A model generated the notes under the pieces. The model ran no database searches. It worked only from the letters and a program-made list of their open reading frames with translations, and was not told the origin of the DNA. Shown in pieces: positions 26,896 to 58,520 of a DNA stretch of 64,000 nt. Source of the DNA: Vicinamibacterales bacterium (GTDB taxonomy: Bacteria; Acidobacteriota; Vicinamibacteria; Vicinamibacterales; UBA8438). The first letter of the stretch is position 1. Each line of letters starts with the position of its first letter. Location of the stretch: positions 6,935,339 through 6,999,338 of the forward strand of contig CBDHGC010000004.1 in the NCBI GenBank assembly GCA_965262925.1, written 5' to 3'. The position numbers and the translations under genes are program-made.

Positions 26896-27019
26896 CTAAC
26901 CTAGCGCAGAACAGAACGCATCAGGAGGGCTCTGCCGCAACGAGGCGCGGAAAGACGTTACAGGAAGAATCTGGAGCTGTAACGTGGCAGGGCCGAGCAG
27001 GAACTGAACGAGGACCGGA

Positions 27020-34268: not shown

Positions 34269-34592
34269 ATGAACGACAGAACAGCGATGGTCGTGACGGT
34301 GGTGGGCAGTTCCGTGGGCATGGGGGCGTTACTGCTGACCGTGATGACCCTTCTAATCGGGTCCGTGAACACGCGGATCGACGACCTGCAGGACACCGTG
34401 AACACGCGGATCAGCGACCTGGGGGTCACCATGAACTCCCGGATGGACGACACGAACAGCCGAGTCGACGACCTCAACGACCGGGTTACCGAGCTGAACG
34501 ATCGGATGACCGGCGTCGAGAACGGCATGCGCGAAGTGCGCAACCTGCTCATCGAGGCGCTCAAAGCCGAACCCCCGGCCAACGGAAACTAG
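34269..34592 (+). CDS. Small membrane-anchored coiled-coil protein with 11-residue repeats
   Basis: RBS GGTGAGGAG. TM helix AMVVTVVGSSVGMGALLLTVMTLLIG. Repeats VNTRIDDLQDT / VNTRISDLGVT / MNSRMDDTNSR / VDDLNDRVTEL / NDRMTGVENGM. GC-rich third codon positions. Confidence 0.65.
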   Translation: MNDRTAMVVTVVGSSVGMGALLLTVMTLLIGSVNTRIDDLQDTVNTRISDLGVTMNSRMDDTNSRVDDLNDRVTELNDRMTGVENGMREVRNLLIEALKAEPPANGN

Positions 34593-35049
34593 CCAGCCTC
34601 CCCGGTGCCTCCGGCCGCAAGACAAACAATCCGCAAACGCGGCGAGTGCCGCCACGGTGCCTCTCGAACATCGGCGCGGGCCGACGAACGCCACGGCAGG
34701 GACAGGGCGACGGGCGATAACGGGCCAAGCGAGCTACGGAGCGGCCGGAGGAGTGAGCCGGCCGGCGCGAGGCGGCGCCGCGCGGGATTGTCCAGACCGC
34801 CGGGAGCGCCTCGCGGTTGACTGATCCAACCCGCGCAAGGCCCAGGGACCGCACCGAACCGACACGCCTTCAACCCGACGGCCGGCGCCAACGCCGCGCG
34901 CAACGTACGCGACCACGAGGTCGCCAGAATCGCGGTGCAGATGAACGACGTCCCGGGAAGATGGTCGCCATCTTCCCAGAGGAACCGATGGAAGCCGGCG
35001 GACCGGCCGGCAGGATGGGTGTCGCCGGCACGAGAAGCCGACCGCGCCC

Positions 35050-35612
35050 TAGTGGCGGCCTCGAGCAGGCGCGCGCTTGAGCGGTAGGCCAGCTGCAGGT
35101 CGATCCGTCGTGCGGCGGGGAAGTCACGCTGGAAGCTCATGATGTTCGCGAGATCGGCCCCCCGGCAGCCGTAGATCGCCTGGTCCGGGTCGCCGACCAC
35201 GAAGACGTCGTCGTGTTCCTCGGCGAGCTGGCGCACGAGGACGTACTGCGGGAGGTTCGTGTCCTGGAACTCGTCGACCAGCACGCGCGGGAAGCGGTCG
35301 CCAGCGGCGCGACGCGCGTCGAGGTGCTCATGCAGCGTGCGGACCGTGGCGAGCAGCAGGTCGTCGAAGTCGAGCCCGTTGGCCTCGGCGAGCACGGTCT
35401 GGTAGGAGGCGCAGAGGCGTGCGTTGCGCACGGCGTACTCGTCCCCGTCCCAGTTGTCGGGGGTCGCGGCCACCTGCATGCGGTTCTTGATGACGCTCAT
35501 CCGGTGCAGCAGCGCCTGCGGCTTGTGGACCCGGGTGTCGACGTTGGCGTCGAACATGCACTGGCGCATGACGTTCATCCGTTCTGTCTCGTCGACGATC
35601 CGGAAATCGGCT
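35050..35612 (-). pseudogene. UvrD/Rep-family SF1 helicase, internal fragment only
   Basis: ADFRIVDETERMNVMRQC..., VLVDEFQDTNLPQYVLVRQL (motif II), VFVVGDPDQAIYGCRGA (motif III), LQLAYRSSARLLEAA (motif IV). There is no Walker A region and no C-terminal half. Confidence 0.7.
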
Positions 35613-35619
35613 GACCGGA

Positions 35620-35786
35620 CGGGATCGCGTCACACCCGGAATCGTGCGATCCACCCGAAAGCGCAGCCCGCGTCGATGTAGCCGACTTCGCACCTGCATC
35701 TCAAGGGGTGTATCCCGTTGAGGCGTGTTGTGCATCCGGCGCGAGACCGATGCCGAGATGGAACGGGGCGCTCGATTGACAGGCAT
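35620..35786 (-). pseudogene. vsr: Very-short-patch repair endonuclease, N-terminal fragment
   Basis: SRRMHNTPQRDTPLEMQVRSRLHRRGLRFRVDRTIPGVTRSRP (ORF 35328..35834). The catalytic DxxF...FVDGCFWH part is absent and the sequence abuts the UvrD fragment. Confidence 0.65.
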
Positions 35787-35808
35787 TGCTCCCTCGGCAA
35801 CACCGGGA

Positions 35809-37140
35809 TCACCGGAGGAACGGCGAGACGTCACCGCCGACGGCCGAGAGCGCTGCGCCGTATCCGAGCGCCATCGGCACCGCGTCGCCGATCCACTTGG
35901 CGAGCTTGGCCCTGGAGGGCGGACACCGCGGATCAGTGACGAAGCGGTAGGTGTCCGGGAATCCCTGCAGGCGCGCCGCCTCCCGCGGCGTCAGGGTACG
36001 CCGCTGTGTCGGGTGGACGTACCGGCCACGGCCCGGGGTCATGAAACCGGTGATGATCGTCTGGGCCGGTGTGTCGCGACGCATTCGGCTGTATACCGAC
36101 GGATAACTGGTGCTCTCGCGATGGCACTCCGGGCGTTCCGAACAGGGAAGGTCGTACGCGTTGTTGTCGAACAACCAGTCGATGCGCTGGCGGTTCTCCA
36201 GGCTGAGCTCCGCGGCACGATCCATCGGGTCGTCACCCGACCGCGTCTCGAGATCTCCTATCGCCCACCACACCGACCGCGGCGGTACCTCGGCCAACGC
36301 CTGTAACACTTTGCGGATGGGAATCGGCGCGGCGTCGACTCGAGCGACGAGAAAATGCCGGCGGCGGGTCTGCGGCCAGCCCATCGCGTCCGCGCTCAGA
36401 ATCCCCTCCTCAACCGAGTAGCCAGCCGACTCGAACAGCTGGCGCGCCGTCTGGACCACACCGGAACGATCACTGGTCACCTCCGGAACGTTCTCGACGA
36501 TCGCCATCCGCGCACGCGCGGCGACGGCGAACGCGGGCACCGTCAGGTAGAGGGCGTTCCGAACGTCATCGCGCCGCGTCTGGTTGTTCAAATTGGAGTG
36601 CCCTTGGCACGGCGGTCCGGCCATGACGAGGTCGACGCCGCGAACGGCAACCGCCAGTTTCGGCTCCACGATCTCGGGCTCGTACACGAACGCGGCGTCA
36701 CTACCCCGACGGCGCAGGCGAAAGTCGACCAGCGCGGCCACAGATGCGATCCGGCGGATACGGATATCGTGGTTCGACGCGTAGACGTCGGTCGCTTCCT
36801 CGTCTTCGTCGACGATCAGCTCCGCTCGCACGGGCAGCCCGATCTCGGCGCACAGATTCCGCACTCCAAGCGCGAGGCCGCCGGGGCCGCAGAACAGATC
36901 TAGCGTCCGGAACGGCCGGGCGCGGTGCTCGGCAGGCCGCGGAACCGCCCCGCTTCGCAGTGCCGTCCACCAGGCGCCCTTCGGATCCGCCGTCGGCTCG
37001 GATGCGCCGACGGCAATCGCCGAAGAGATCGTGGTCCCCGCAAGCCGCAGCGTGTGTACCAATCGGGAAGACTCCCTTTGGTACTCATCCGACGTGAGGG
37101 ATTCTCCCTCCGACGACGGGAACAGGGCACCGCAGGTCAC
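35809..37140 (-). CDS. dcm: DNA (cytosine-5) methyltransferase, apparently intact
   Basis: Motif I DLFCGPGG, IV GPPCQGHS, VI ENV, VIII QTRRR, IX/X TPREAARLQGFPD and IGDAVP. GTG start 37140 overlaps the upstream TGA (GTGA). Confidence 0.9.
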   Translation of the reverse strand: MTCGALFPSSEGESLTSDEYQRESSRLVHTLRLAGTTISSAIAVGASEPTADPKGAWWTALRSGAVPRPAEHRARPFRTLDLFCGPGGLALGVRNLCAEIGLPVRAELIVDEDEEATDVYASNHDIRIRRIASVAALVDFRLRRRGSDAAFVYEPEIVEPKLAVAVRGVDLVMAGPPCQGHSNLNNQTRRDDVRNALYLTVPAFAVAARARMAIVENVPEVTSDRSGVVQTARQLFESAGYSVEEGILSADAMGWPQTRRRHFLVARVDAAPIPIRKVLQALAEVPPRSVWWAIGDLETRSGDDPMDRAAELSLENRQRIDWLFDNNAYDLPCSERPECHRESTSYPSVYSRMRRDTPAQTIITGFMTPGRGRYVHPTQRRTLTPREAARLQGFPDTYRFVTDPRCPPSRAKLAKWIGDAVPMALGYGAALSAVGGDVSPFLR

Positions 37141-37563
37141 TCCGAACTCCGCTCGGACAACACCTGGCGCCGGATCTCCTCAAGGAGCGCCTGGGCCTCG
37201 TCGTCGTAGACCGACAACACGACGTTCGACCAAGTGCGGTTCAGGGCCTTGGCGAACTGCCGCAACGGGTCGGTGGGCAGTCGGTGCTGCCGTTGCATGT
37301 CGACGAAAGCTCGAACCAATGAGGGCGCCGTGCCGGTCCTGACACGCACCACGTGACTACGCCAGAAATCGGCAGATCTCGGCAGGACCGAAGCGTACCC
37401 CGCGAAAACCAACCCGCCCACCGCCGCAGCCCGCAGGTACATGCGGGTGAGTACGCATTCGGTGGACGACCTCCCGTCGACGCACTTCAGGTAGTTCCCC
37501 CTCGCGAACGCCCTCGTCTCACGCCACCGGATGAAATCCCAGAAGAGGTCGAGGCTCAGGTAT
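37137..37563 (-). pseudogene. 3' part of a 235-aa gene split by the IS21-like nest (5' part at 48001..48281)
   Basis: Reading 48281->48001 and then 37563->37137 is in frame: ...VLDDPGFW|RYLSLDLFWDFIRWRETRAF...MYLRAAAVGG...EIRRQVLSERSSE*. No family recognised. Confidence 0.8.
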
Positions 37564-37710
37564 CTCCAGAAACCTCAGTGGACGGGTCAAAACCGGCCAT
37601 TTATGGACACCTCAAAACCGGCCATTTCCGGCGGCCCGAGACTGGAGTTGAGATCTACTTCACGGCGTCCTCTGTTGGCAAGGTGTTTGCCGACGCGCTA
37701 GCAGCTAGCT

Positions 37711-40136
37711 CTACCCTGTTACCCACATTATTCGTTCTGAACAACTCCAGCACGCTCCCGCCGTCCAATGCGGTAGCCGATGGTTGCGATGGACATTCGT
37801 TCGTAACCGCGCCACATGATCTGGTGTCCGGGGGGCGGGTCGTGCGTTCGGTTCTGGTAGCCGCCGAGGATGGCGAGCAGGAGGACTGCGGCGGCGAGAT
37901 GGTCAGGGGGGCGGCAGGCCGAGTTCTTCGGCATAGTCGGTCAGGAAACGCAACTCGATGTCGGTGAACAGCAACTGGGCGTCGCACCCCGGCACGTCAC
38001 GACCGAGCAGGGTCATCACCATCAGGCGCCAGGCGATCACGGTATTGATGGTGACCGCGCGTTGGAGCCGGTCGGCGGTGTGGAACGCGAGATGTTCGAC
38101 TCGGCATCCGGACTTGAGCACCCGGAACAGGTCTTCGATGCGCCAGCGCCGCAGGTAGTAGCCGATGACCGCGACCGCGGTTTCGGTGCTGTCGACGTCG
38201 AGGCTGGTGAGCAGGAACCACTCGACCGCCGGCTCGCCGGGCGGCGGCGCGGTTTCGCGCACATGGACCGTGGACAGCGCCAGCGGTTCGGCGCCGGCGA
38301 TGGTCGGCGGCGCCACCACTTGGCGATGGCGCACCTCGGCCCGCGCCACCCGCCCGGTGCGCGCCGGGCGGGCCTGCCTGCCGTTCGACTTGCGCCGCGC
38401 GCTCAGGCGGTCGATCTCGATCTCGACGTGCCCGTCGGCGGCGCCGGCGCGCATGGCGGCGAACAGCTTCGGGGCGCCCTGGGCGAGACAGCGGTCATGG
38501 TGGGCGCGCACCAGCACTTCCACCCGGTTCAGACGGCGCTGCTCGTCGAACACCGCGAAGCAATCCGCCTCCCGGTCCATGACGCTGAGCACTCGGGTCT
38601 TGCGGCTCAACGCCGCCGCCGCCCGGTCGATGTCGCGCAGGCCGTCGACCCAGCGCCGCGTCTTGGGGGCCGTCTCCTGCGCCGCCGCCGGCGGCGGCTC
38701 GTCCGCCGGGCGCGCCGCGCCGCCCGGCGGCGCCTCGAAACCGCAGCGCAGCACGCCCAGCGGCAAACCCGCGCCATTGACCGCCAGGGTCAGATGCAGA
38801 TGCAGGCCGAGCGTCTTCGAGGCCGTCTGGTTGCGCCCGATGATGCCCAGCCCCTCGCAGTGCGGGCGCGTCGCAAAATTCAGATCCGTCCCGTCCTGGA
38901 TGCACAGCACCGTGTCCTGGCCGCGCATCCGCTGCAGCGTGCGCGCCCGGTGGGGCGCGAGAATGTTCCCGGGCGTGACCGCCGACGACACCGGCTGGTC
39001 GATGAGCCGGTAGTAGCCCTTCACCGCCGCGCGGTCGTGGGACGCGTTGGCGGTGACCGCCTCTCCGGGCAACGACGCCAGCAGCCCCGCGCTCTTGACC
39101 AGACGCGCCGACAACCGCTGATCGCCCAACGGCGCCCCTCCAAACTCGTTCACCGTCCAGGCGCCGCTGTCGAGACCGTCAGCCGGCGCCAGCGCCGGCG
39201 CCGCGTCGACCCGCGCCACCCCCAACCGCCGCCGCCAGTGCGGCTCCAACTCATACATATATACCGACTTGACCGGACGAGCCCGCGCGTGGTCGCGGTC
39301 CTGGCGCCCGCGACCGGCCGTGTGCCCGACCCACACGAAGTTGGCCGCCTTGAAGCTGGCGCCGTCATGCGCGGGGCCGACGAAGGTCTCCACCAGCCAC
39401 GGACGATACCGGTAGCGGGCTTCGAAATCCGCTGGCAGACGCGCCAGCACCTGGCCCAGCACCTGGCTGGCCAGGTTGCGGCATTGCACGCCGGGGCGGA
39501 TCAGGAACCGGCTCAGGCACAGCACCCGGTGCAGATGCGCTTGGCGTTGCTCATCGCTCCATCCCATCCACGCCTCGCGCGCCCGCAAATGCAACGCCGA
39601 CGCCGAAAACCCGACCGCGCCGAGCACCCCGTGCGCCGAGACCACCAGATAGCGCACTTGGCAGCCCGCAAAGGTCGTCGTCCCCTGCGGATGCTCGAAG
39701 TGCAGCAAGGTATTCCACACCCGGCGCTGCCGGCCTTGCTCTACCCGCTCCAGCGACAACCCCGCGACCGCCTCCACCGTACCCGGCACCGCCGTGGCCG
39801 CCGCCACCGGCGCGTCGAAACGCTGCGGCGTGGGCGCGCCCCCGCCACCCCGCGACGCCGGCAACGCAATCCGCCCCGCCTTGTGCAGCGTGTTGAGCGC
39901 TTTGAGACAACCCGCGAGTTGGGCCGACCCGCGCGCATCCACAAACCCAAACTCCGCGCACACCCGCCGCCCCACCGCCGCCCGGTTGTTCAGCGCCTCC
40001 TGCGCCACAATTCGCTCGAGGCGAGCTTGCGACTCAGGCGCACGAAGGGTCTGTAGTATCTGGTTCTGGTGCTCCATGCCGTGACGCTACACGGCGGAAG
40101 CTTATTTGTCCAGCCCTGAATGTGGGGGCAGGGTAG
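37711..40136 (-). mobile_element. Tn5/IS50-like IS4-family element, copy 1 (2426 bp), 8-bp TSD AGCTAGCT
   Basis: IRs CTACCCTGTTACCCACATT (37711->) and CTACCCTGCCCCCACATT (40136<-). TSD at 37703-37710 and 40137-40144. Second copy at 56571..60929. Confidence 0.85.
37728..40077 (-). pseudogene. Tn5-like DDE transposase with long N-terminal extra domain; frame broken at a 6-nt homopolymer
   Basis: ORF 37903..40077 (VLCIQDGTDLNF, VLSVMDREADCF, YYLRRWRIEDLFRVLKSGCRVE) continues in ORF 37728..37934 (DHLAAAVLLLAILGGYQNRTHDPPPGHQIMWRGYERMSIATIGYRI) after the G6 run 37907-37912. N-terminal region RYLVVSAHGVLGAVGFSASA...NLASQVLG...PWLVETFVGPAHDGASFKAANFVWVGHTAGRGRQDR. Confidence 0.8.
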
Positions 40137-40145
40137 AGCTAGCTG

Positions 40146-40526
40146 CTAGCCGTCACGCCCGAAGCCCCTGGGCAGCTCGACAGCCTCCAGTACCGACAGA
40201 TCCAGATCGCAGACCTGCTCGAGCAACTCCGCGGTCGCGGATCCGGCAAGGCGTCCCGCCACTCCCGGTACCTGTTCCTGCAACTCCAGGAGCGTCTGCA
40301 CCGCGTCGTTCCACTGCTGTGGCCGCGATCTGCGGTCCGCTGGCCGACGGTACCGGATCGGGGATTCGCCAGCCTTCCGCCGCTCCCGGTAACGTGGCTG
40401 CCGCTCGGCGTTGGTCAACGCCACACGACCATGCTGCAGCGTTACGTAACGGACCAGGGGGAAGCGGTCGGCCGCGCGATCGAGGCGCAAGCGTGGCGAC
40501 ACCCACCGCTCGGTTGTCATCGGCAT
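40146..40526 (-). CDS. Hypothetical 126-aa protein carried between istB and the IS21-like right end (C-terminus ...LEAVELPRGFGRDG)
   Basis: ORF track. Arg-rich N-terminus NAERQPRYRERRKAG and acidic helical C-terminus. I recall this protein pattern but cannot name the family. Confidence 0.45.
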   Translation of the reverse strand: MPMTTERWVSPRLRLDRAADRFPLVRYVTLQHGRVALTNAERQPRYRERRKAGESPIRYRRPADRRSRPQQWNDAVQTLLELQEQVPGVAGRLAGSATAELLEQVCDLDLSVLEAVELPRGFGRDG

Positions 40527-41027
40527 CGGTGTACGCGTGCGGGTTGGTCCGCGACAGCGTGCGCGAGGTAATGCTCCAAGCGTAGAGAGGGCCTTGTGTG
40601 GTCTGGTCTCCTGGGTGGGTTCCGCGCCGGACGTCGGTGTTGGTCATGCCCGGCCGGGGTACCCTCGCGAGACGGAACGGCCGGGCTGGGCCGGACGGTG
40701 TGGTCGACGACGACGCAGTGGAAAGGGCGTTGCGTCGAGCGACAACCCGAGTGCTGCGGAAGGCTCGTCTGGCGCACGCGGCGAGTGTGGGGGCGGTCGG
40801 TGTCGGTTGTTGCGCCAGGCGCGCCTGGAGGCGGCGCTCTCGCGCGCGCGGACCACGTCCGGATGGGCGTTGACGCGTGGCCGCGCGCGAATCCTTCGCT
40901 CCGCTCCGCAACGCCGGGGTAGGACGCCAGCGGAACGCCGGCTACCGCAGAGCGGGGGGAAGTGCCCACGGGGTTCGGACTGCGGCCCGGTGCGAAAGCG
41001 CCGGATGAGCCACCGACTCCCCACCGG

Positions 41028-41465
41028 TTACGCGCCTGCCGTCGACTCTACCAAGGTGGTCCGCACCCGGGTGCGCCAGCTGCGCGGCCCGCACTTGAGC
41101 ACGTGCGCGTGATGCAGGAGCCGGTCGAGCAGCGCGGTGACCGCGGCGGTGTCGCCGAGCAGCTTCCCCCACTCGTCGACCGGCCGGTTGGAGGTGAGCA
41201 TCGTCGAGGCCCGCTCGTAGCGGCGCATGATCAGCTCGAGCAGGTCCTCGGCGGCGGTGTGGGGCAGCTTGCGCATGCCGAGGTCGTCGATGATGAGCAG
41301 GTGCGCGCGGGTCAACTCGGCGAGGTAGTCCTTGCGGGTCTCGGCGAGCGTCGCCTCGGCGAGTTCTTCGAGGAAGGTGTGGGTTTCGCGGTAGAGGACG
41401 CGGTAGCCCTGCTGGATTGCGGCGCGCCCGATGGCCTGGGCGAGGTGACTCTTGCCGGTGCCGGG
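41028..41465 (-). pseudogene. istB: IstB AAA+ helper, 3' part (from the Walker A onward)
   Basis: PGTGKSHLAQAIGRAAIQQGYRVLY...LLIIDDLGMRKL...STMLTSNRPVDEWGKLLGD...DRLLHHAHVLKCG (ORF 41028..41795). Confidence 0.85.
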
Positions 41466-41545
41466 GAGCCCCGTCCCATACTGCCCGATACCAAGCGTCC
41501 GAAGCGACGATCCACTATCCGTTCCATCCGCGGAGCGGGAAGCGC

Positions 41546-41953
41546 GTGGAGATCGTGCGCCGCCAGCACTTTCGTGGCAGGCGCGTGTTCGTCGTTCGAC
41601 AGCCGGACGACACGCTGGCCCACATCCCGACCTGGATGTGCGAGCCCCCGGCCGCCGCGCTTGCGGTAGTAGACCACCCACGCATCGCGTTGGCGGGCCT
41701 GCGCGACTTGCGTCTTGCTCTCGACGCGGCGCTATCGTCGTTCTCCAGCATGGAGGAAGGAGAGCGGCATGGGACGGATACAGGTGGTGGGGCAAGGCGC
41801 GCTACTGGTGCAGATGGAGCCGGGACCGGCGCTCGAGTCGAGGACACGGGCGACGCTGCTTCCGCTGGTGGCGACTCTGTTGCTCGAAGCGGCGGTGGCG
41901 CCCGCGACCATGAGCAAACCGGCGGAATCCGGAAAGACGGAGGGAGGCGATGA
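41546..41953 (+). CDS. Small ORF translationally coupled (ATGA) to the serine recombinase; conserved-looking part starts earlier without an in-element start codon
   Basis: TIHYPFHPRSGKRVEIVRRQHFRGRRVFVVRQPDDTLAHIPTWMCEPPAA (frame of ORF 41417..41953). The first in-element start is GTG 41546. Confidence 0.4.
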   Translation: MEIVRRQHFRGRRVFVVRQPDDTLAHIPTWMCEPPAAALAVVDHPRIALAGLRDLRLALDAALSSFSSMEEGERHGTDTGGGARRATGADGAGTGARVEDTGDAASAGGDSVARSGGGARDHEQTGGIRKDGGRR

Positions 41954-44008
41954 GCAAGATCGCACCTGACCATCTCAGCCGTCAGGCCTTCGTCTATGTC
42001 CGGCAATCGACGCGAGACCAACTGCGCCACCACCACGAGAGCCGGCGTCGGCAGTATGGGCTCGCGGAACATGCCCGGCGGCTCGGCTGGACCGAACCGG
42101 TCGTGGTGGACGACGACCTCGGGCGCTCGGGCGGCGGCAGCGCTCGTCCGGGGTTCGAGCGGCTGCTGCTCGCGATCTGTGAGGGACGCGTCGGCATCGT
42201 ACTGGCGGTGGAGGCCTCACGCCTCGCGCGTAACGGCCGCGACTGGCACACGCTACTTGAGTTCTGCGGTCTGGTGGGCTGTCTGCTCGCCGACGAGGAA
42301 GCCATCTACGATCCGCGGCTGCCGGACGACCGCCTGTTGCTCGGCATGAAGGGCACGATGGCCGAGATGGAGCTGTCGCTGTTGCGCCAGCGTTCGCTCG
42401 AAGCCCTCCGACAGAAGGCGCGTCGCGGCGAGCTGTTCCTGAGCGTCGCGGTCGGCTACGTGAAGGTCCGGCACGACCGGATCGCAAAGGACCCCGACCT
42501 GCGGGTGCAGGAAGCAATCGGACTCGTGTTCCGGAAGTTTGCCGAGTTCGAGAGCGTCCGGCAGGTGCATCTCTGGCTCCGGCAGGAGGGCGTGCGACTG
42601 CCGTCCGTCGAGGCCAACGGCGACGGCCGACGGGTCGTGTGGAAGCTCCCGGTCTACAAGACGGTTCACAGACTGCTGACCAACCCGATCTACGGCGGCG
42701 CCTACGCCTTCGGTCGAACGGGGAGCCGGGTCACGGTCGAGAACGGGCGCAAGCGTGTCCGGCGTGGGCTCGCTCGGGAACGCGAGCAGTGGGACGTATT
42801 GATCGTGGATCACCACGAGGGCTATGTTTCGTGGGCAGAGTACGAGAGGAACCAGCGTGTGATCGCCGACAACGCTTCCCGGCAGGGTCTGCTGACGCGC
42901 GGCGCGGTTCGCCGCGGGGACGCGTTGCTCGCCGGTCTGCTGCGCTGCGGACATTGCGGGCGACGGATCCACGTCGCCTACAGCGGTACCAAGGGCGAAT
43001 GCGTTCGCTATAGCTGCCGCGGCGCGCATCTCAACCATGGGACGGGCTGGTGCATCGCGTTCGGCGGCGTGCGGGTCGACGCGGCGGTGGCGACCGAAGT
43101 GCTGCGGCTGTTGAACCCGCTCGGCATCGAGGCTGCCCTCAAGGCGGTAGCGATGCGCGAACAGCAGCACACCGACAGGCGACACCACGCGAAGCTGGCG
43201 CTCACCCAGGCGCGGTACGAGGCGGACCTGGCGCGTCGCCAGTACGACGCAATCGACCCGGCCAAGCCTGGTCGCCGCCGAGCTCGAACGCCGATGGAAC
43301 GATCGCCTCGCGGACGTGCAACAGCAGGAAGAACGGATCGCCGGCCTGACGGCGGCCCACCCGGAGGCGCTGTCGCCCGCGGAGCACGACCGCCTGCTGG
43401 CGCTTGGCGCCGACCTCGAAACGGCCTGGACCCATCCCAGTGCGACAGCACAGACGCGGAAACGAATCGTGCGCGCCATCCTCGAAGAGATCGTTGTGAA
43501 GCTGGCCGCGGAGCACATCGAATTGCTCCTCCACTGGCGGGGCGGCGATCACACTCGTCTCACCGTCCCCCGCAACCGAACGGGACAGCATCGCTGGTGC
43601 ACGGACGCGACGGTCGGCGACTTGATCCGGGGACTGGCCCGCCAGCTGACGGACGGCGGCATCGCCCAAACGCTGAATCGCCTCGGCAAGCGGACCGGAC
43701 GCGGCAACGCCTGGACCGAGGCACGGGTCCGCACCTTTCGAAGCCAACACCGGGTGCCGGCACATCGTCCCGGTGAGATGGCGGAACGTGGGGAGCTGAC
43801 CCTGAAGGAAGCCGCCGGCCGGCTCGGCGTCAGCACCATGACCGTGCTGCGACTCATCGGCGACGGCACGCTCGTCGCCCAGCAGGTCTGCCGGGGCGCC
43901 CCTTGGGCCATCCCGGAGGAACAGATCGTCGCGCTTGCCGGCGCGATCCCATCCGGACGTCGTCCGCTAACATCGAGCTCGGCTCAGGAAGTGCTTGATT
44001 TTCAGTGA
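41950..44008 (+). pseudogene. Large serine recombinase (resolvase catalytic domain, recombinase domain and zinc ribbon), one frameshift
   Basis: FVYVRQSTRDQ (catalytic Ser region), LAVEASRLARNGRDWHTLLEF, CGHCGRRIHVAYSGTKGECVRYSC. The frame changes at ~43261-43275 (DPAK / SLVAAELERRWNDRLA) into ORF 43316..44008, which has a C-terminal HTH LTLKEAAGRLGVSTMTVLRLI. Confidence 0.85.
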
Positions 44009-44042
44009 CGTAGCGAGGTGTGCATCATGAGACCCGACTCGG

Positions 44043-44366
44043 CTGGCCGATGAGCAGGACGTCTTCCCGCTGGGCGATGAAGCGTGCGGTGGCGAGTTCG
44101 AAGACGAGCGCGCGGTTGATCTTCTTGTTGAAGGCGAAGTCGAAGCCGTCGAGCGCGCGGTCGGGGTCGCGGAATCGGGCCTGTTTGTGCCGGCGGGCGA
44201 GCAGGCGGTCCTCGCGGCGCTGGAGCTCGTCGGAAACGAGCGCGGCGAGCAGGTCGATGGGGGCCATCTGCTCGGTCTGGGCCTGGAGCAGGCGGGTGTC
44301 GAGGACGTCTGCCATGCCGGAGAGGCGCAGCTTGCGCAGCGCCTGGTCGAGTTCGACGAGATTCAT
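44043..44366 (-). pseudogene. istB: IstB, 5' part
   Basis: MNLVELDQALRKLRLSGMADVLDTRLLQAQTEQMAPIDLLAALVSDELQRRE...FIAQREDVLLIG. ATGA overlap with istA. Confidence 0.85.
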
Positions 44367-45952
44367 GAGGGGTCTCCTGTTCTGCGGTCGATCAGATCGC
44401 GGTAGACGGTCAGTTCGCGGATGAGCGGGTCGACCTGGCGTAGCGACAGCGGCGCGACGGGGTGACGGTCCAGGTAGCGTTTCAGGAAGCGGTAGGTGGG
44501 CACGCCGAGTTCGAGCGCGCCGGTGGCGGCGTCTTCGACGACGGCGGCCCCGTGCTTCTTGACGAGGGAGAGGACGCCGAGGATGCGTCGGACGCCGACG
44601 GCGCCCTCATGGCGGTGGATGTGGTTGCAGACGGTGGAGATGGCGGGACCGGCCCGCTTGGCGGCGGCGAGCAGGGCGAGGGTCTTCGGCGGTGTGCGGG
44701 TGGGCCGGTCGTCGTCGGCGATGCGATGCCAGCCCCGCTGGGTGCGCAGGTGCTCGCGCAACAGCTGGCCGGCGCCCGGGTCGAGGAGGCGGACGTGGAT
44801 GTCGTCCCACTGCACGTTGACGCGGCGGCCGATCCAGCCGGGCGGCGCCGAGTAGTAGGCCGCGGCGACTTCGACGCAACCGTCCAGATGCACGGTGCGG
44901 CGGCCGTACTGGTAGTAGCGGAACGGCTCGAGCGGCAACGGGCCGAGCGCGGGGCGTTCTTCCTCGAACATGGCGGCGACCTGGCGCTTGGTCGTGCCGT
45001 GGATGCGGGTGTCGGCCCAGCGCCGCTCCCAGCGGTCCAGATACGCCTGACCGTCGTCGAGGCGCTCGAAGCGGAGTCCGCGCAGCGGCGTCTTCTGGGC
45101 GTGGCCGACGGCGGCTTCGACCTTGCCCTTGCGATCGGGGTCGCGGACCCGACACGGCAGGGCGACGACCCCGTAGTGGGCCAGCACGTCGCGGTAGAGC
45201 GGATTGAGCGCCGGGTCGTAGATGTCCGGGGTGAGGACGCCCTCCTTGAGGTTGTCGAGCACGACGACGCGCACGGTGCCTCCCAGCCGTCGGAACGCCC
45301 GCTCGTGCAGTTGGGCCCAGATCTGCGCGCTCGACCGCTGGACCAGCAGCCGCACGGCCTTGCGCGAGTAGCCCAGGGTCAGGACGAAGAGCCGTGTTCG
45401 CCGGTACTTGCCGGAGTCCGGGTCACGGACCATCGGTCCCTCGCCGTAGTCGACTTGTGCTTCCTCCCCCCGGTCCGTGGTGATCACTGCCCGGGCCTCG
45501 AGGGCGGGCTGCTGCCGGACGGTCGAGACGAAACGCCGCACGCTTGCATAGCCCGCCGGGAAGCCGTGGTCGTCGACCAGGTCCTGCCAGATGGCCATGG
45601 CGTTGCGCCCGCGGCCGAGCGCGTCGACGATCAGCTCGCGGTAGGGCGCGCACGCGCTCGCCTGCGGCGCCCGACCGGGCCGTTGCTCGGGGACGGGTGC
45701 GGCGGCGGCGGCGCCCTTGCCGGCCGTCGTGGCCAGCGAAGAGTCGGTGGACACCTCCGGCGAAATGGCCGGTTTTGCCGGGCGAGCGGGAGGCCGTCCA
45801 CGGCCCCGCACCTTCAGGCCGGCCGCCTTCAGGTAACCGCTGGCGGTCTCGCGCCGGACCCCGGTGGCCTCTTCGATCTGCCGAAGCGACCAGCCGAGCC
45901 GCCCCAGCGCGAGGACCTGTTGTCGTTTCTCTTCCTTCAAGACGTTGCTCAT
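44363..45952 (-). CDS. istA: IS21-family transposase IstA
   Basis: MSNVLKEEKRQQVLALGRLGWSLRQIEEATGV (HTH). EEAQVDYGEG...LFVLTLGYSRKAV..., VVLDNLKEGV, GKVEAAVG. ATG 45952 lies within ORF 44363..45997. Confidence 0.9.
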   Translation of the reverse strand: MSNVLKEEKRQQVLALGRLGWSLRQIEEATGVRRETASGYLKAAGLKVRGRGRPPARPAKPAISPEVSTDSSLATTAGKGAAAAAPVPEQRPGRAPQASACAPYRELIVDALGRGRNAMAIWQDLVDDHGFPAGYASVRRFVSTVRQQPALEARAVITTDRGEEAQVDYGEGPMVRDPDSGKYRRTRLFVLTLGYSRKAVRLLVQRSSAQIWAQLHERAFRRLGGTVRVVVLDNLKEGVLTPDIYDPALNPLYRDVLAHYGVVALPCRVRDPDRKGKVEAAVGHAQKTPLRGLRFERLDDGQAYLDRWERRWADTRIHGTTKRQVAAMFEEERPALGPLPLEPFRYYQYGRRTVHLDGCVEVAAAYYSAPPGWIGRRVNVQWDDIHVRLLDPGAGQLLREHLRTQRGWHRIADDDRPTRTPPKTLALLAAAKRAGPAISTVCNHIHRHEGAVGVRRILGVLSLVKKHGAAVVEDAATGALELGVPTYRFLKRYLDRHPVAPLSLRQVDPLIRELTVYRDLIDRRTGDPS

Positions 45953-46124
45953 GCCCGGGCAGGAACGTCGTGTTCCAGACCGGTGAGCCTCTTGCAAAAC
46001 CCTTGGTCGGCCGGGTTTTCCTACCCGAGGCAGAGGGAACGGACGGTCAGCGGGGTGGGACGCAGCGTTCGTAGGATTAGGATAGCAGCCGTCACCGGCG
46101 CCGGGGAACCGGAGACACGGGGTC

Positions 46125-46502
46125 TCAAGGGACCTCTGGGACCTCCCGGTCGGTTATGAGGGCGAGCGCGCGCGACGAGACGTGGCGCATTTCCCTCACG
46201 ACCCGTTCCAGTTCGCGGTTGTTCTCGAGCCACTCCTGGTAGAGGGCGAGTTCGTCTTCGGAGAGCAGCAGGCTGACCGTTTTTCCGCGCACCTTGTGTG
46301 TCCAGTAGCGGTACGGGCCGTGACGCGCGTCCGGGTCGCGGTGGCAGCGGCAGGCAGGCTTCCCGCACGTGAGACGGCGGGTCTGGATACTGCCCTGGCG
46401 GACAAACCCGAGCGTTTGCAACTCCGCCTTGAGCGCATCGTATTGTTCGCTGTACCGGCGCATCGGGTTCCGGCGGCCCATCGGTTCCCTCCTTGACCTC
46501 AC
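46125..46502 (-). CDS. Small Cys-motif protein of IS copy C
   Basis: CGKPACRCHRDPDARHGPYRYWTHKVRGKTV. Paralogue of 13382..13747. Confidence 0.65.
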   Translation of the reverse strand: MRSRREPMGRRNPMRRYSEQYDALKAELQTLGFVRQGSIQTRRLTCGKPACRCHRDPDARHGPYRYWTHKVRGKTVSLLLSEDELALYQEWLENNRELERVVREMRHVSSRALALITDREVPEVP

Positions 46503-46545
46503 TCCTACACTACTATATATAGTAGGCGCTGGGAGCAGTCAAGCC

Positions 46546-47685
46546 ATGCAGAACCTGCGCGCCTCGTTCGCCGCCTACTGGGAGTCAATCCAACAGGGCC
46601 TGTTTCCCCGGTTGGAGCAGGTGTTGGGTTCGCTGACCGAGAAACAGCAGCAGTTGGTGCAGACCCTCGAGGTGATCCGTATCGAGCAGATGATTCCCTC
46701 GCGCTTGCGGATGCCGGGCCGCCCCCGCAAGGACCGCGCGGCGGTGGCGCGCGCCTTCGTCGCCAAGGCGGTCTACGACATGCCGACCACGCGCCTGCTG
46801 CTGGACCGGTTGGCCACCGACGTGGTGCTGCGCCGCATCTGCGGCTGGGAGCGGCGGCGCGAGATGCCAAGCGAGTCGGTCTTCTCTCGCGCCTTCGCCG
46901 AATTCGCCCACTCCCAGTTGCCCCAGCGCGTGCATGAAGCGTTGCTCCGGAAGACGCACGGCGACCGTTTGGTGGGCCATCTGTCCCGAGACTCGACGGC
47001 CATCGAGGGGCGCGAGAAGCCGGCCGCGAAGGAGAAGTCGCCTCCGCCGCCCAAGCGCAAGCGGGGCCGGCCGAAGAAGGGTGAAGAACGGCCCAAGACA
47101 CGCAAACGCCTCGACCGGCAACCGAGCATGACCCTGCAGGAGATGCTCGACGACCTGCCGGCCGAGTGCAGTGTGGGCACGAAGAAGAACAGCAAGGGCT
47201 ACAGGGACACCTGGGTCGGCTACAAGTTGCACATCGACGTGGCCGACGGCCAGATTCCGGTCAGTTGCATCCTGACGTCCGCCTCGCTGCACGACAGCCA
47301 GGCCGCCGTTCCACTGGCCACCCTGTCGGCCCAGCGGGTGGACAATCTGTATGACCTGATGGATGCCGCCTACGACGCGGTGCAGATCCGCGAGCACAGC
47401 CGCGCACTCGGCCACGTCCCGCTGATCGATATCAACCCCCGCCGTGACACTGCGCTGGCCGAAGAACTGCAGACCGAAGCCCGGCGCCTGAAGCGTCTCG
47501 GCTTGCAGCTTCCCGAACAGGTTCGGTACAACGAACGCACGGCGGGTGAGCGCGTCAATGGCCGACTCAAGGACGAGTTCGGCGGGCGCCACGTCCGAGT
47601 CCGCGGCAACGCGAAGGTGATGTGCCACTGCCTGTTCGGCGTGCTGGCGCTCACCGCCGACCAGCTCCTGCGGCTGGTGACGTAA
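46546..47685 (+). CDS. DDE transposase of IS copy C
   Basis: MQNLRASFAAYWESIQQ (ATG 46546). It is colinear with the copy A transposase, with many substitutions. Confidence 0.85.
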   Translation: MQNLRASFAAYWESIQQGLFPRLEQVLGSLTEKQQQLVQTLEVIRIEQMIPSRLRMPGRPRKDRAAVARAFVAKAVYDMPTTRLLLDRLATDVVLRRICGWERRREMPSESVFSRAFAEFAHSQLPQRVHEALLRKTHGDRLVGHLSRDSTAIEGREKPAAKEKSPPPPKRKRGRPKKGEERPKTRKRLDRQPSMTLQEMLDDLPAECSVGTKKNSKGYRDTWVGYKLHIDVADGQIPVSCILTSASLHDSQAAVPLATLSAQRVDNLYDLMDAAYDAVQIREHSRALGHVPLIDINPRRDTALAEELQTEARRLKRLGLQLPEQVRYNERTAGERVNGRLKDEFGGRHVRVRGNAKVMCHCLFGVLALTADQLLRLVT

Positions 47686-48000
47686 ACCAACGCCTCGCCG
47701 GCCAACGCGCATCCCCTTCCGGTCGCCCGACAGGCGTCAGTCACCAACCGGTGTCTCCAACGCCCGGTGGGAAAACCCTCGAACTCCCTGATTTCCGCCT
47801 CTTGGGTCGCCGCCGGTCCTCCCGCCCCGCATTCTCGGTCGGGATCCAGGCAAAACGATGTTCACCAGAAGAACTTGTGCTCCGAGCCGAGCTACGCCAA
47901 GAGTTTTGCAAGCGGCTCCGGTGTCAACGTCTCGGGCCGCTATCGGAAATGGCCGGTTTTCAGCCGTCTACTAATGGCCGGATTTGGGTGTTCACCGAGG

Positions 48001-48281
48001 CTCCAGAAACCGGGATCGTCAAGCACGTCGACATCAACGACGCACAGAGCGTCATGCAGCAGCGGCGCGGCCTCACCCTCGCGCTGTTCTCTCGCCGCAT
48101 CGGTCGCCGTGTCGTCGAGGTCGGCCGTCATCATCGCCGCCGCCTGACGTACGCAGTCCAGATCCACGTCGTCACCTTCGCCGACCCACTCGACGGCGGG
48201 CTCCAGAGCTGGGTGTTCATCCTTCCACATCCGCAGAGCAAGACCCGCGCACCGATCTCCGCGGATGGTGGGATATCTCAT
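48001..48281 (-). pseudogene. 5' part of the split 235-aa gene (continues at 37563)
   Basis: MRYPTIRGDRCAGLALRMWKDEHPALEPAVEWVGEGDDVDLDCVRQ...VLDDPGFW. ATGA overlap with the upstream gene. The listed ORF 47940..48281 reads on into the IS end. Confidence 0.8.
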
Positions 48282-49258
48282 GACTCACCGTCGCGAACGG
48301 ATTCGCGGGTCCGGACGAGCACGTCGAGGGCCGCTTCCGCGTGCGCAATCACCTTGGCGGGATTGGCAGTCACGTCGCGGAGGAGCTGCTCGCCCGACGC
48401 CCCGGCCTTCGCGGCGATGCGGAGCACCCTGGCCAACAGGGAGTCGCCCAAGTCACTCCATGTCTGGCCCTTCAGCTCGCTCTCGCGTGCCGCCGCGGCA
48501 TGGACGATAGCCGTGATGACATCCTGCGCGAGCTGCAACTGCATCGCCTGGCTCACGGGTGATCGGGACCGGGCGCTGAGATCATCGAGCAGCTCGCGGT
48601 CGACGTAGAGGTCGAGAGCCTGGGCGTCGTACGATTCGAGCGGATCGACGTCGTCCATGCTGACGTAGCGCATCGTCTTCCGGGGAAGGCCGAGCTGCTG
48701 TCGCGTCTCGTCGTCGAGCGGCTTCGGATGGAACAGCCGTTGCGCCTGTTCCGTTGCGATCTTGAACGTCTCTCGCGCCAGCCACGTTCCCCGCCGCCAC
48801 GGGCGGAGCGGCAGCGGCTCGAGGGCCCGCGCCAAGAGAAGGAAAACATCGACGGTCGCGCCGTGATGCGGGGCGCAGAAGGCCTCGGGGCGATCCGGTT
48901 CCGTCAGGGCCACGACGCGCGCCATGGCGTCCAGATTCGCGCATGAGGCTTGGTGGACGATGTTCGTGATCTTCAGATACGGCGTCGCTGCGGTCACCAA
49001 CAGGGCCAGCGCCGACCGGTCGAACCCGTCGGCGGCCGCGCCCTCCGCTAGCGTCTTCCTGAACGCCTCGAACGATTCGTCGTCCGGTGTCCAGTGGATC
49101 TCGGCCCTCTTCCGCACATGCAGCTCAGGCTCGAAGATCGTGATCCGCCCGCCGGCCTTGCAAGTGCCACCGCCAAAGCGGAGGGCAGCCTTCGAGAGCA
49201 CTTTCGCGAGCGATTTGGAAATCTCGAACGGACGGACAGTCCGAGTCTCACTGCTCAA
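48278..49258 (-). CDS. Hypothetical 326-aa protein, second gene of the GHKL/Dcm operon
   Basis: ORF track. 11-nt overlap with the upstream gene and 4-nt overlap with the downstream gene. I see no nuclease, NTPase or HTH motif by eye. Confidence 0.6.
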   Translation of the reverse strand: MSSETRTVRPFEISKSLAKVLSKAALRFGGGTCKAGGRITIFEPELHVRKRAEIHWTPDDESFEAFRKTLAEGAAADGFDRSALALLVTAATPYLKITNIVHQASCANLDAMARVVALTEPDRPEAFCAPHHGATVDVFLLLARALEPLPLRPWRRGTWLARETFKIATEQAQRLFHPKPLDDETRQQLGLPRKTMRYVSMDDVDPLESYDAQALDLYVDRELLDDLSARSRSPVSQAMQLQLAQDVITAIVHAAAARESELKGQTWSDLGDSLLARVLRIAAKAGASGEQLLRDVTANPAKVIAHAEAALDVLVRTRESVRDGES

Positions 49259-51140
49259 CGTTGAGGTCCTTCACGAACTCCGCGTTCGCGCGAAGCTCGC
49301 CAGTCCAGCCGTTCCGGTACGGCTCGGTCGCGAAGGCAAAACGCGCCTCAACGCCGCGTGCAAGACGACCGACGAACTCGTTGCCCCCACCGGCTGGCCT
49401 GAAACCCGCCGGTGGATCGACCGTAATTTCCGCATCGTCTCCTGTCCGATCATCCTCCACGAACACGTAACGAATCGTCACGGCGATCTCTGCCTCGTCA
49501 TCAGGGGCATGGTCCGTGAGAGAGAAGGACACAGAGCCGCTGACTCTCAGCGAATCGGCCGCCACCTGCGCGAGCATAGAATCGGTGCGAATCGAAACAG
49601 GCCGTGGCTCCGGTTCGGGTCGGGGCCGGGCTGGACCGGCGAGCAGTCTCCTCATGGCCCGATCGAACGCCGGCAGCACGTAGTCGTCGCGACGGTGCCG
49701 CTCAGGCTTCAACTGCTGACGGAAGGTCCCCACCGCGAACTTGATGCGCGCGACGATGTGCTTCGCGCACTGGGTGGCGGACAGCGGAATGTCGTCCGAC
49801 TCCGACGCGGTCGTTTGCCAAGCGTCGTGCCCCTTGGGCTCGGTAGCTCGGAGCGCCTCGTCGACGCTAGGATCAGCGACGAATACGCCACGCACGTACG
49901 GCGTAGCGCGCCCCGCGTCGTAGTACTCAACGACCATGCGGGGCTTCCGGACGAGGGCCACCAGACTACGGTGCTCGATCACCTCGTCGCCGGACGGCGT
50001 CGTCTGTTCCGGGTACGACCACCCCGCCGGATCGGCCACCAACCCCAGCACGCCGGGGCGGGGAAACGAGCCTATGGACCTGAAGGCGACCTGCTTACGA
50101 TCGGACCGCCGGTTATCTGGCGGCGCAGTCGCCACTTCGTAGGCGTCGAGGAACGTCGCGAGCACGTCGTCCTTTCGGGGGCGGGGACACGACTCACTTC
50201 CTTCCGCCGTCTCTACGACGGCGTTGAAGTCCACCCCACTCTCGAGGGCGGGCTACCAGGAACGCTCGATCGCCTTGACGAGACCCGGCGGACGAACGGT
50301 GGGATCGATGAGCAGGAACGTCGTTCCGAGCTGCTCTGGAGACTCCGGCTGCCGAACGGGGATGCCGAGGCCGTCGGCGATTTCGTCGGCCTTCTCGTTC
50401 TTGAAGGGAACGGTGTCCTCCGATCCTGTCGCGTGACCGAACCGAGCGAATCCGGTGTAGCTCCGATCACCGATATGGTGCTGGCCCCAGTAGGCCATGC
50501 CGAGTAGCCGGCGGGTCACCCCCGGGTCGTCCTCGTGTTCGCGGAAGCACGTGTAGGCGACCACCGTCCGGACGGCAGACCCGCGGATCAACCCGCTCTT
50601 GCCGTACCCGTAGGAACCGCCGGTGCCCGCCCGCTTCGCGTGGAACGAGACGGTGTTGAGCGCCAGGTACATCTTGGACCGGTCGCCCGACCACGGTCCG
50701 TACATACCCGTGGTGCCGCTCTCCTCGATCAGGAGGTACGGGAGTGCCCCATCCTCCGCCAGTCGCTCCAGGCAGTTGGGCGAACGAAGACCGAGCTGTC
50801 CGTGGTCGGAATCGCCTAGTCGTTCGGCCAGCTCGCCAAGCCCCAACCTGACGATCAGATGCCGCTTGCGCTCCGCAAGCGCGGACCTGAACGAGAAGCG
50901 ATTCTCGAAGGGCGGTGCATCGTCGGAGTCCTCGCGCAACTCGATCGCGGCATCCCACGAGTTCTGGATTACCTCCCGTGCGAGCAGCGTGGCGTCCGCT
51001 GAAGGCGCACCGGCTGAGAACACCCCGGGCTGCTTGACGCTCTCGTTCTTGAACAGCTTGGAGAGATCGCCTGACGAACTGCTACGACTGGGGTTGGTCT
51101 TCTCCCAGTACCACTTGCGGGACGGTGTGTCGGCGGCCAT
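49248..51140 (-). pseudogene. GHKL (Hsp90/MutL/MORC-like) ATPase, ~630 aa, interrupted by one in-frame TAG at 50253-50255
   Basis: N box REVIQNSWDAAIE, G1 IEESGTTGMYG, G2 RAGTGGSYGYGKSG (ORF 50253..51140). ORF 49248..50234 is in the same frame. My reading gives ...VKAIERSW*PALESGVDFNAVV. Confidence 0.75.
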
Positions 51141-56570: not shown

Positions 56571-56814
56571 CTACCCTGTGAGCCACTTGCAAAACTCTTG
56601 GGGTCGCGGCTCGGCTCAGTCCTCCGATTCTCGGGGTGAACACCCCAATTGTTCTGGATTTTGACTCCGTGTTCTGGTCCTGAAGGGCCGGCGGCAGCCA
56701 GGAAGCGGAAAACAAGGGGATCGACGTGTTTTCCACCGAGCGTCGGGACACCGGTGGGTGACTGACGCCGGTTGAGCGCCGGGATTGGATGGGCGTTTGC
56801 CGGCGGCGCGTTGG

Positions 56815-57954: not shown

Positions 57955-58003
57955 GGCTTGTTGACCGCTCCTGCGAGCTACTGTATATTTACGCGCAGGG
58001 GCA

Positions 58004-58369: not shown

Positions 58370-58520
58370 ACCCCCGCGTCTCGGACTCGTCGGCGGCGGT
58401 GACCGCTACCGCCATCCTTCAGACGCTACGTCCCGCCCACTGACCGTCCCTCGCCCTGCGGCTTCCGGCAAAGAAAACCCGGCCGATTACCGATTTTTGC
58501 AAGAGGCTCCTGTACCCACA

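Follow-up and report, generated by a model that had tools for sequence, protein, structure and literature searches.

The 64,000-nt stretch of Vicinamibacterales DNA considered here (contig CBDHGC010000004.1, positions 6,935,339 to 6,999,338; the window) carries on its minus strand, in this order, the genes A, B and C, the last of them split by a 10.4-kb insert, followed by a C5 methylase gene (D, or dcm) and the stump of a vsr gene. The cassette in the window is a dead, recently inactivated copy of a gene set that occurs intact in other genomes, and a role of that set in methylase-linked defence is proposed below. Since the window has a GC content of ~68%, at which long shadow open reading frames (ORFs) are common on both strands, reading frames were chosen by GC at third codon positions (GC3), which is 0.81-0.83 in the proposed frames of the cassette genes. 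The coordinates and order of A, B, C, dcm and the vsr remnant, as given in an earlier reading of the letters and their ORFs alone (the sequence-only reading), were confirmed by translation (Table 1).

Table 1. Features of the cassette and of the insert that splits gene C; positions are those of the window.
Feature	Coordinates	Strand	Basis or remark
Gene A (pseudogene), predicted Top6B-like GHKL ATPase	49248..51140	-	630 codons, translation
Gene B, intact ORF, 326 aa	48278..49258	-	translation, TTG start
Gene C, 5' part, codons 1-~93, to upstream copy of the target-site duplication	48001..48281	-	putative DUF6339 protein
Gene C, 3' part	37137..37563	-	putative DUF6339 protein; rejoined to 48281-48001 gives a 235-aa ORF
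Gene D, predicted C5 cytosine DNA methyltransferase, intact, 443 aa	35809..37140	-	PF00145
vsr remnant, first ~33 codons	35689..35786	-	weak PF03852/TIGR00632; blastn end-point against L005
10.4-kb nest: IS21-family element with three secondary insertions	37564..48000	.	self-blast, Pfam, 11-nt flanking duplication
Own ends of the IS21 element	~37573-37714 and 47821-48000		self-blast, Pfam on ORFs of the nest
istA	45997-44363	-	rve and Mu-transposase C-terminal domain
istB, N-terminal part	44366-44025	-	IstB_IS21 (PF01695)
istB, C-terminal part	41795-41028	-	IstB_IS21 (PF01695)
Secondary insertion (i): 2.43-kb IS, 724-aa DruA-domain/DDE transposase	37715-40143		Pfam, self-blast
Secondary insertion (ii): serine-recombinase and HTH unit, splits istB	~41800-44024		Pfam
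Secondary insertion (iii): 1.84-kb DUF772/DDE IS	45985-47820		self-blast, Pfam

The genes from A to D are joined by overlaps, as had been claimed: A and B share 11 nt, B and C meet in ATGA, and the stop codon of C lies over the start of dcm in GTGA. An intact relative of the cassette lies on the chromosome of another Vicinamibacterales genome assembled from a metagenome (MAG; locus L005), and in a blastn comparison homology to this locus runs from 51236 to 48001 and again from 37574 to 35689, the two segments overlapping at the junction by the 11 nt GGTTTCTGGAG. The same 11 nt are present at both flanks of the 10.4-kb insert, which indicates an insertion with target-site duplication (TSD); the duplication counts 9 or 11 bp, depending on where the inverted repeat of the insertion sequence (IS) is assumed to start. 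The proposal that deletion of the insert and one TSD copy restores C in frame was borne out, the two parts of the gene joining into 708 nt, or 235 codons, in agreement with the blastn comparison.

Gene A is inactivated by a single in-frame amber codon (TGG>TAG, codon 296, 50255-50253) at a site that reads TGG in L005, the residue being the invariant W296 of a WWP motif. A, C and vsr were disabled by three independent events, namely a point mutation, the nested IS insertion and a deletion. The view that only the methylase had stayed intact was thus correct for A (amber codon), C (IS-split) and vsr (truncated) and incorrect for B, which is likewise uninterrupted; B and dcm are the only frames left open in the window. 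For each of the four genes, comparison of the window with L005 gives a ratio of nonsynonymous to synonymous substitutions (dN/dS) within 0.16-0.23, which indicates purifying selection and hence that the lesions are recent. As a result of the insertion, dcm now stands 10.4 kb from the upstream region of the operon; promoter and terminator scans gave results at chance level and are uninformative on its expression. A search with the window's DNA found no plasmid match.

In L005, the four genes encode proteins of 631, 326, 235 and 443 aa and are followed by Vsr, exactly the gene lengths predicted by repair of the cassette in the window. Homologues are numerous: A is represented by more than 587 clusters of ~630 aa, none of them annotated, and C by 442, all with PF19866; B has 595 representatives at 50% identity, all ~330 aa long. 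A scan restricted to one genome per species yielded 74 loci (L005-L078), 65 of which extend far enough downstream. A, B, C and Dcm follow one another on one strand in 59 of these 65, in keeping with the suggestion that they form one coupled unit. Vsr is present in 27 of the 65, in variable position and on either strand. Across the 74 loci no other gene, such as a nuclease or helicase, is consistently linked to A-B-C-Dcm with or without Vsr; the top neighbour clusters, considered as an extra conserved partner, turned out to be antisense shadows of Dcm and Vsr. The hosts, most of them MAGs, belong to at least six phyla and include Acidimicrobiia, Vicinamibacterales, Dehalococcoidia, Caldilineaceae, Gemmatimonadota and Thermoanaerobaculia; many bear sponge-symbiont names, and the loci come mostly from sponge or marine MAGs.

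The four genes co-diversify. Among 30 complete loci, the pairwise identities of A, B, C and D are correlated (Spearman 0.52-0.72); Dcm is the slowest-diverging component, with a mean identity of 53%, and B the fastest, with 35%. Natural fusions of A with B or of A with C, which might have indicated interaction, were rejected, P0272 being a frameshift artefact and P0016 a deletion derivative. Decay is seen elsewhere too: in four related Vicinamibacterales loci, C and Dcm are both missing, and A is either a truncated gene or one split by an IS. The survival of an orphan methylase after decay of a toxic effector, which the sequence-only reading had seen in the window, is therefore not a recurring pattern; the simpler reading is that a dispensable islet undergoes general erosion where genomes are rich in ISs.

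Several loci show the surroundings of the cassette. In three Acidimicrobiales loci (L002, L003 and L004), an islet of A-B-C-Dcm-Vsr and a DUF222/HNH gene stands between two 118-aa retropepsin-like (gag-asp_proteas) genes, a bracketing consistent with insertion of a mobile islet or with target duplication. In a further Acidimicrobiales locus (L086), the cassette and a PIN/DUF433 toxin-antitoxin (TA) pair lie between two fragments, of 454 aa and 132 aa, from a PALP-family gene, with a DUF499 gene nearby, an arrangement that looks like an inserted islet. Two A-B-C cassettes per locus, in many cases arranged convergently or divergently about one or two Dcm genes, are found in L024, L070, L073 and on a Halorussus plasmid (L081), which suggests paralogous cores that share methylases or pair with them.

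Gene A gave no match in Pfam at E<=10 in any of 25 diverse family members, and thus neither HATPase_c nor HATPase_c_3, and none in NCBIfam or, by profile search, in the PDB. Nevertheless, the N-box and the glycine-rich ATP-lid motifs of a GHKL (Bergerat-fold) ATPase are invariant among these 25 members (E56xxxN60xxD63, E140..G145-M-x-G148 and G174-G-S-Y-G-Y-G-K181), and all of their residues are present in the window's A. The fold was taken from an AlphaFold2 (AF2) model of P0005, a homologue 82% identical to the window's A, with a predicted local distance difference test score (pLDDT) of 80.6. A Foldseek search of this model against the PDB returned subunit B of topoisomerase VI (Topo VI-B, Top6B) as the best 15 matches (E 8.5e-11 to ~1e-4, probability 0.99-1.0), among them 9o8p_B, 2q2e_B and 1mx0 (Top6B of M. 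mazei and S. shibatae), followed by the ATPase of human Topo IIa; the best 16 are all GHKL modules of type II topoisomerases (probability 0.8-1.0), with TM-scores against Top6B of only ~0.3. The last ~120 residues match Ig-like beta-sandwiches, and M. mazei Top6B also bears an Ig-like domain at its C-terminus. On the strength of the model, A is best described as a putative Top6B-like ATPase of GHKL and transducer domains, with long helices and an Ig-like C-terminal domain, and its designation as a GHKL-fold ATPase by the sequence-only reading is borne out by the model and its structural matches. A further invariant motif, E434-P-K-G-H438-D-x-W, reads EPKGHDAW in the family and is kept as EPVAHDCW in a Synechococcus homologue. 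The idea that its K436 is the switch lysine of the transducer was weakened by the valine that this homologue has there.

Gene B starts with TTG, as in L005, and its dN/dS against that locus is 0.19. It has conserved motifs (MSxExRxVRPF at the N-terminus, and PLRPWRKGTW) and few invariant positions in the family alignment (P10, L95, D220 and Q240), and searches of Pfam, NCBIfam, PADLOC and PDB profiles gave no match. A role for B as an analogue of Top6A/Spo11 was ruled out, since it lacks an invariant Tyr and the Toprim acids and gave no profile match.

Gene C, once repaired, scores 16.6 bits against DUF6339 (PF19866), whose cut-off is 23.2; the homologue P0148, which is 85% identical, and all other listed homologues of C carry a precomputed PF19866 match. 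An hhalign comparison with an NCBI-annotated DUF6339 protein of Halomicrobium gave a probability of 91.6% (E 8e-7), and intact 235-aa orthologues are present in L001/L005. Invariant residues are many: E68, D88, D89, W93, W102, W107, R108, Y121, R134, R138, D159, W161, R162, S163, H164, R167, R195, R203, W205 and N207. The AF2 model (pLDDT 81, above 87 over residues 1-140) is mostly helical and found no Foldseek match in the PDB or BFVD, nor did a profile search against PDB sequences return anything, Top6A included. C is therefore taken, on its model, to be a probable DUF6339 protein of a novel, mostly helical fold with dense invariant acidic, basic and aromatic residues.

Gene D matches PF00145 at 128 bits (E 6e-37), has the length and the GTG start of its counterpart in L005, and carries the catalytic motifs I (DLFCGPGG), IV (GPPCQGHS) and VI (IVENVPE). 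Its best PADLOC model is DruM2 (1.4e-86), DrmMII models also match, and its relatives in the PDB are DNMT1, M.HaeIII and M.HhaI. By these matches D is predicted to be a canonical C5 cytosine methyltransferase with intact catalytic motifs. The adjoining stump matches the Vsr models PF03852/TIGR00632 over residues 12-48 only, at 18-19 bits and below their cut-offs, and homology to the vsr gene of L005 ceases after ~100 nt, at ~35689, near the end at 35620 given by the sequence-only reading. An overlap between the end of dcm and the start of vsr, also claimed there, was not found: the Vsr-homologous ATG at 35786 lies 23 nt past the dcm stop, compared with a gap of 20 nt in L005, and an in-frame GTG exists at 35834, but homology does not back it as the start. 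Next to the stump lies a 5'-truncated fragment of a UvrD helicase gene (34589-35578, minus strand; PF00580 positions 125-271), which implies that the rest of vsr was lost by deletion or rearrangement, together with the start of the helicase gene.

Relatives of the A-B-C core lead to PDC-M33, a PADLOC phage defence candidate (CAS_00129, FAM_02818>>FAM_02838>>FAM_01881) of three families and 98 occurrences, which is among 145 untested candidates nominated for their embedding in BREX, DISARM or Type I restriction-modification (R-M) loci and whose definition takes in three genes but no methylase (Payne et al. 2024, bioRxiv 10.1101/2024.01.29.577857). The hidden Markov model (HMM) of PDC-M33A matches all 25 members of the A family (best 2e-16), over the N-terminal ~150 residues only and with weak, partial scores of 33-40 bits; the window's A gives 5e-9 and 33 bits, over profile positions 32-171 of 627 only. 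The PDC-M33C HMM matches 29 of 34 members of the C family (best 2e-7 to 9e-6), and the repaired C of the window itself gives no match at E<=1. For comparison, bona fide members of PDC-M33 score 1e-82 to 1e-162 over the full length of A and ~1e-31 to 1e-47 for C. None of 32 members of the B family matches the PDC-M33B HMM (289 positions) at E<=10, and hhalign finds no detectable relation between the B family and PDC-M33B-type proteins (probability 0.1%). The sizes of the co-directional A>B>C proteins are 630/326/235 aa here and 628-655/286-295/252-273 aa in bona fide loci. The earlier statement that the trio could not be placed in any named system holds for B, which matches nothing, and is softened for A and C, whose families give weak, partial matches to the PDC-M33A and PDC-M33C models and are joined to bona fide PDC-M33 by a chain of homologues. 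It is doubtful, judging from these scores, that PADLOC would call the window's cassette.

The chain was found by tblastn, which located intermediate relatives of the cassette on plasmids. Synechococcus elongatus pIITB6_1 carries A (643 aa), B (342 aa), a DUF6339 protein (226 aa) and Dcm (641 aa), with an abortive infection (Abi) gene adjoining, and megaplasmids of Halomicrobium, Halorussus and Halobaculum carry A>B>DUF6339 within DISARM-like loci, beside a perfect DrmMII C5 methylase. The A of the window's family and that of Synechococcus are related with a probability of 99.1% (hhalign, E 4e-19), and the latter served as a stepping stone to cassettes on plasmids of Lactococcus, Ligilactobacillus and Arthrobacter that are bona fide PDC-M33 (A 1e-162, B 4e-63, C 4e-47). 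On Lactococcus pS127 the PDC-M33 trio is on its own next to AbiGI/GII; in L. salivarius it lies among genes for an S subunit, an N6 methylase, a large methyltransferase and a helicase; and in Arthrobacter it is found between a complete Dcm-Vsr-restriction endonuclease (REase) system and a Shedu nuclease. The defence or mobile neighbours of related cassettes thus comprise Abi, AbiG, Shedu, TA pairs and Type I R-M. A tblastn search of plasmids with a member of the C family gave no match, C being too diverged. No homology is detectable between the middle proteins of the three clades, and the superfamily therefore appears to comprise three or more clades, no two of which have middle proteins that can be recognised as related. 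The A-B-C core of the window is accordingly assigned to a putative remote branch of PDC-M33, A and C being probable remote homologues of their PDC-M33 counterparts. The link between the three genes and a methylase, as proposed by the sequence-only reading, holds for 59 of the 65 loci of the window's clade and not for all bona fide PDC-M33 loci; since methylase-less loci exist, only some clades have the core tightly fused to a C5 methylase. On the Halobaculum plasmid (L082), a 677-aa 'ATP-binding protein' gene that overlaps a DNA cytosine methyltransferase gene (13170-16248) lies beside the A-B-DUF6339 trio and may represent, within that island, another GHKL/methylase pair, of the paraMORC type.

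The insert in C is built around an IS21-family element, which has IstA and IstB genes, CCTC(G/A)GTG ends and a flanking duplication of 9-11 nt. Among its secondary insertions, the 2.43-kb IS has a second copy at 58509-60936 (99.4% identical), and its transposase carries a DruA domain (PF14236, the Druantia DruA family) at the N-terminus, ahead of Tnp_DNA_bind and DDE_Tnp_1, a curious case of a domain named after a defence system. The unit that splits istB encodes a 608-aa large serine recombinase (Resolvase, Recombinase and Zn_ribbon_recom; 41800-44024) with an adjoining HTH_17 ORF. The 1.84-kb IS is 82% identical to a 1.93-kb IS (444-aa DUF772/DDE transposase) present in the window as two inverted copies, 99.9% identical and 41 kb apart (13242-15171 and 56580-58509), the latter directly adjoining the DruA-domain IS at 58509. 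Within the 1.84-kb element, a 125-aa DUF6788 ORF (E 6e-33; 46125-46502, minus strand) is divergent from the transposase gene and overlaps its 5' end. In the related MAG locus L013, gene A is split by a relative of this DUF772/DDE IS. A tandem direct duplication of ~360 bp (26180-26535 and 26569-26926, 95% identity) also occurs in the window.

The locus is read here, with a probability of about 0.55, as a copy of a conserved cassette, a remote PDC-M33 branch fused to Dcm, that would serve in methylation-keyed, ATP-gated defence; the most likely function, as we infer it, is that of a DNA-targeting defence module. A defence or R-M-like role is plausible because related cassettes are embedded in DISARM loci and adjoin Abi, Shedu and TA genes. 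Dcm would mark the host DNA at its target motif, and Vsr would limit the C>T mutagenesis caused by m5C. A may dimerise on ATP like other GHKL clamps, its transducer helices relaying the nucleotide state to B and C, which would engage unmarked incoming DNA and inactivate it by cleavage or topological entrapment. C would be the best candidate for the effector, as the catalytic or DNA-contacting part, and B may act as an adaptor or specificity determinant, whose conserved N-terminal peptide might dock on A as the N-terminus of Top6A does on Top6B. ATP-gated clamping, the choice of the protein that would touch DNA and self/non-self discrimination keyed to methylation are all elements that we infer. 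If the module does act in this way, it would amount to an R-M-like system whose core is a GHKL gate instead of a classical nuclease or helicase, and DUF6339 would gain a function. A bolder form of this proposal, which is possible but tentative, is that the cassette represents a new class of restriction, in which a Top6B-like ATP-gated clamp that lost its Top6A/Toprim partner, or never had one, a DUF6339 effector of novel fold and a hypervariable B as specificity or adaptor subunit destroy or entrap DNA that lacks the m5C of their own Dcm; if true, methylation-keyed immunity would gain a class with a new mechanism, related in evolution to the ATPases of type IIB topoisomerases or of paraMORC and spread across Bacteria and Archaea.

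Several observations weigh against the proposed defence function. In A, B and C the searches recognised no domain of a nuclease, a helicase or a DNA-binding protein, and no Top6A/Spo11 partner (WHD-Tyr and Toprim) of the kind found in topoisomerase VI occurs in the cassette or among the conserved neighbours in the 74 loci. In the window, the cassette has as its immediate neighbours a trypsin-like peptidase, RecD2 and the UvrD fragment, none of which is a defence gene, and no relatives of the cassette were found in viral contigs. A literature search found no paper that tests PDC-M33 or mentions DUF6339, PDC-M33 appearing in a supplementary table only. Gene A is fragmented or truncated in 26 of the 65 loci, in several of them (L013, L021, L058, L075, L057 and L061) by insertions of 1.2-3.4 kb; the fragmentation may represent real and frequent decay or dispensability, or else frameshift errors in long-read MAG assemblies. 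Finally, PDC-M33 proper stands without an adjacent C5 methylase in Lactococcus, where the trio is alone, and in L. salivarius, where it is accompanied by N6-methylase genes; the core may thus do without methylation for self-protection, which is the main argument against strict methylation keying. The suggestion of a methylation-associated defence or restriction module, made by the sequence-only reading, is plausible from the defence neighbourhoods of related cassettes, but a strict tie to a methylase is not universal.

These methylase-less loci also lend weight to a different view, in which A-B-C works autonomously in defence or abortive infection and is blind to methylation, with Dcm-Vsr a co-transferred neighbour or with A-B-C a second-line guard. 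The definition of PDC-M33 as three genes, its position beside AbiG on pS127 and among N6-methylase, S-subunit and helicase genes in L. salivarius, and the Dcm-Vsr of Arthrobacter, which has its own type II REase, are all in accord with such autonomy. However, the stop of C overlaps the start of dcm, Dcm follows C in 59 of 65 loci and equals A in how closely it co-diversifies with B and C (0.59-0.69), and the fusion to Dcm recurs independently in Synechococcus, with a C5 methyltransferase adjacent in haloarchaea; on balance, an autonomous module is considered rather doubtful. It would be more surprising still if A-B-C were a repair or maintenance accessory of Dcm-Vsr, in which a MutL-like A stimulates very-short-patch repair of T:G mismatches. 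The GHKL ATPase MutL of E. coli does stimulate Vsr, the parallel for a GHKL protein beside Dcm/Vsr has been discussed (PMC2292703), and Vsr occurs in 27 loci; yet it is absent from 38 of the 65 and variable in position and strand, the core also occurs without any C5 methyltransferase or Vsr, and the fold of A matches Top6B rather than MutL. The patchy, islet-like distribution, with TA, Abi, Shedu and DISARM neighbours, likewise argues against a repair accessory, which makes this reading highly improbable. That the operon is an artefact of 68% GC, its ORFs being chance reading frames such as the many long shadow ORFs on both strands of the window, is refuted for practical purposes by hundreds of full-length homologues each for A, B and C in conserved synteny, by purifying selection (dN/dS 0.16-0.23), by GC3 above 0.8 and by confident AF2 models. 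The preferred reading remains that of a methylation-keyed defence cassette, of which the window holds a pseudogenised remnant in an IS-rich genome, probably that of a sponge-associated acidobacterium, to be annotated as such. The family itself is large, spans at least six bacterial phyla and haloarchaea, and has neither functional annotation nor a recognisable nuclease. As a candidate for a novel kind of methylase-linked defence it is a good one and open to experiment.

Compared with known systems, the cassette differs from classical Type II R-M in that no endonuclease of recognisable nuclease fold stands beside the methylase: searches of Pfam, NCBIfam, PADLOC and the PDB found no PD-(D/E)xK, HNH, PLD or GIY-YIG domain in A, B or C, and together with the Foldseek search of C they agree with the earlier observation that the three partner proteins bear no nuclease or helicase signature. 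A resembles Top6B in its GHKL and transducer fold, for which Top6B is the best structural match, and in the invariant N-box and glycine motifs; it differs in lacking detectable sequence similarity and in its context, a methylase operon rather than a housekeeping topoisomerase. In B and C, no Toprim motifs and no Top6A match among PDB profiles were found, and C is predicted to be all-helical. The MORC/paraMORC type, which the sequence-only reading had brought up for comparison, gives way for A to a Top6B-like one. The usual Pfam signature of that type is HATPase_c_3, which is matched by none of the 25 members, and the closest structures are Topo VI-B; on the other side, the invariant E434-x-x-x-H438 motif fits the paraMORC2 signature given by Iyer, Abhiman & Aravind (2008, PMC2292703), an ExxxH within the C-terminal portion of S5, so that A may have some affinity to paraMORC2. 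Across the 74 loci, the SFII helicase and RE-fold nuclease genes that typically accompany R-M-like MORC/paraMORC operons (PMC2292703) are absent.

With DISARM class 2 and Druantia type II, the cassette shares a methylase of the same broad subfamily, as seen from the DruM2 and DrmMII models, and the logic of combining a methylase with partners that include no classical nuclease; haloarchaeal relatives of A-B-C are, moreover, embedded in DISARM loci beside a perfect DrmMII. Homologues of DrmA/B/C or DruE/F/G are nevertheless lacking in the window and in the 74 related loci, and A, B and C match no such models. With PDC-M33, its remote relative, the cassette shares the co-directional order of three genes, similar sizes, a C protein annotated as DUF6339 and methylase-based defence loci in or near which it lies; among the differences is the operonic, co-diversifying Dcm (with or without Vsr) of the window's clade, which is outside the definition of PDC-M33. 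Beyond that PADLOC entry, the present analysis adds the predicted Top6B-like fold of the ATPase, a DUF6339 partner without structural relatives in the PDB, and the finding that in entire clades a C5 methylase, with or without Vsr, is coupled in translation to the core and has diversified along with it.

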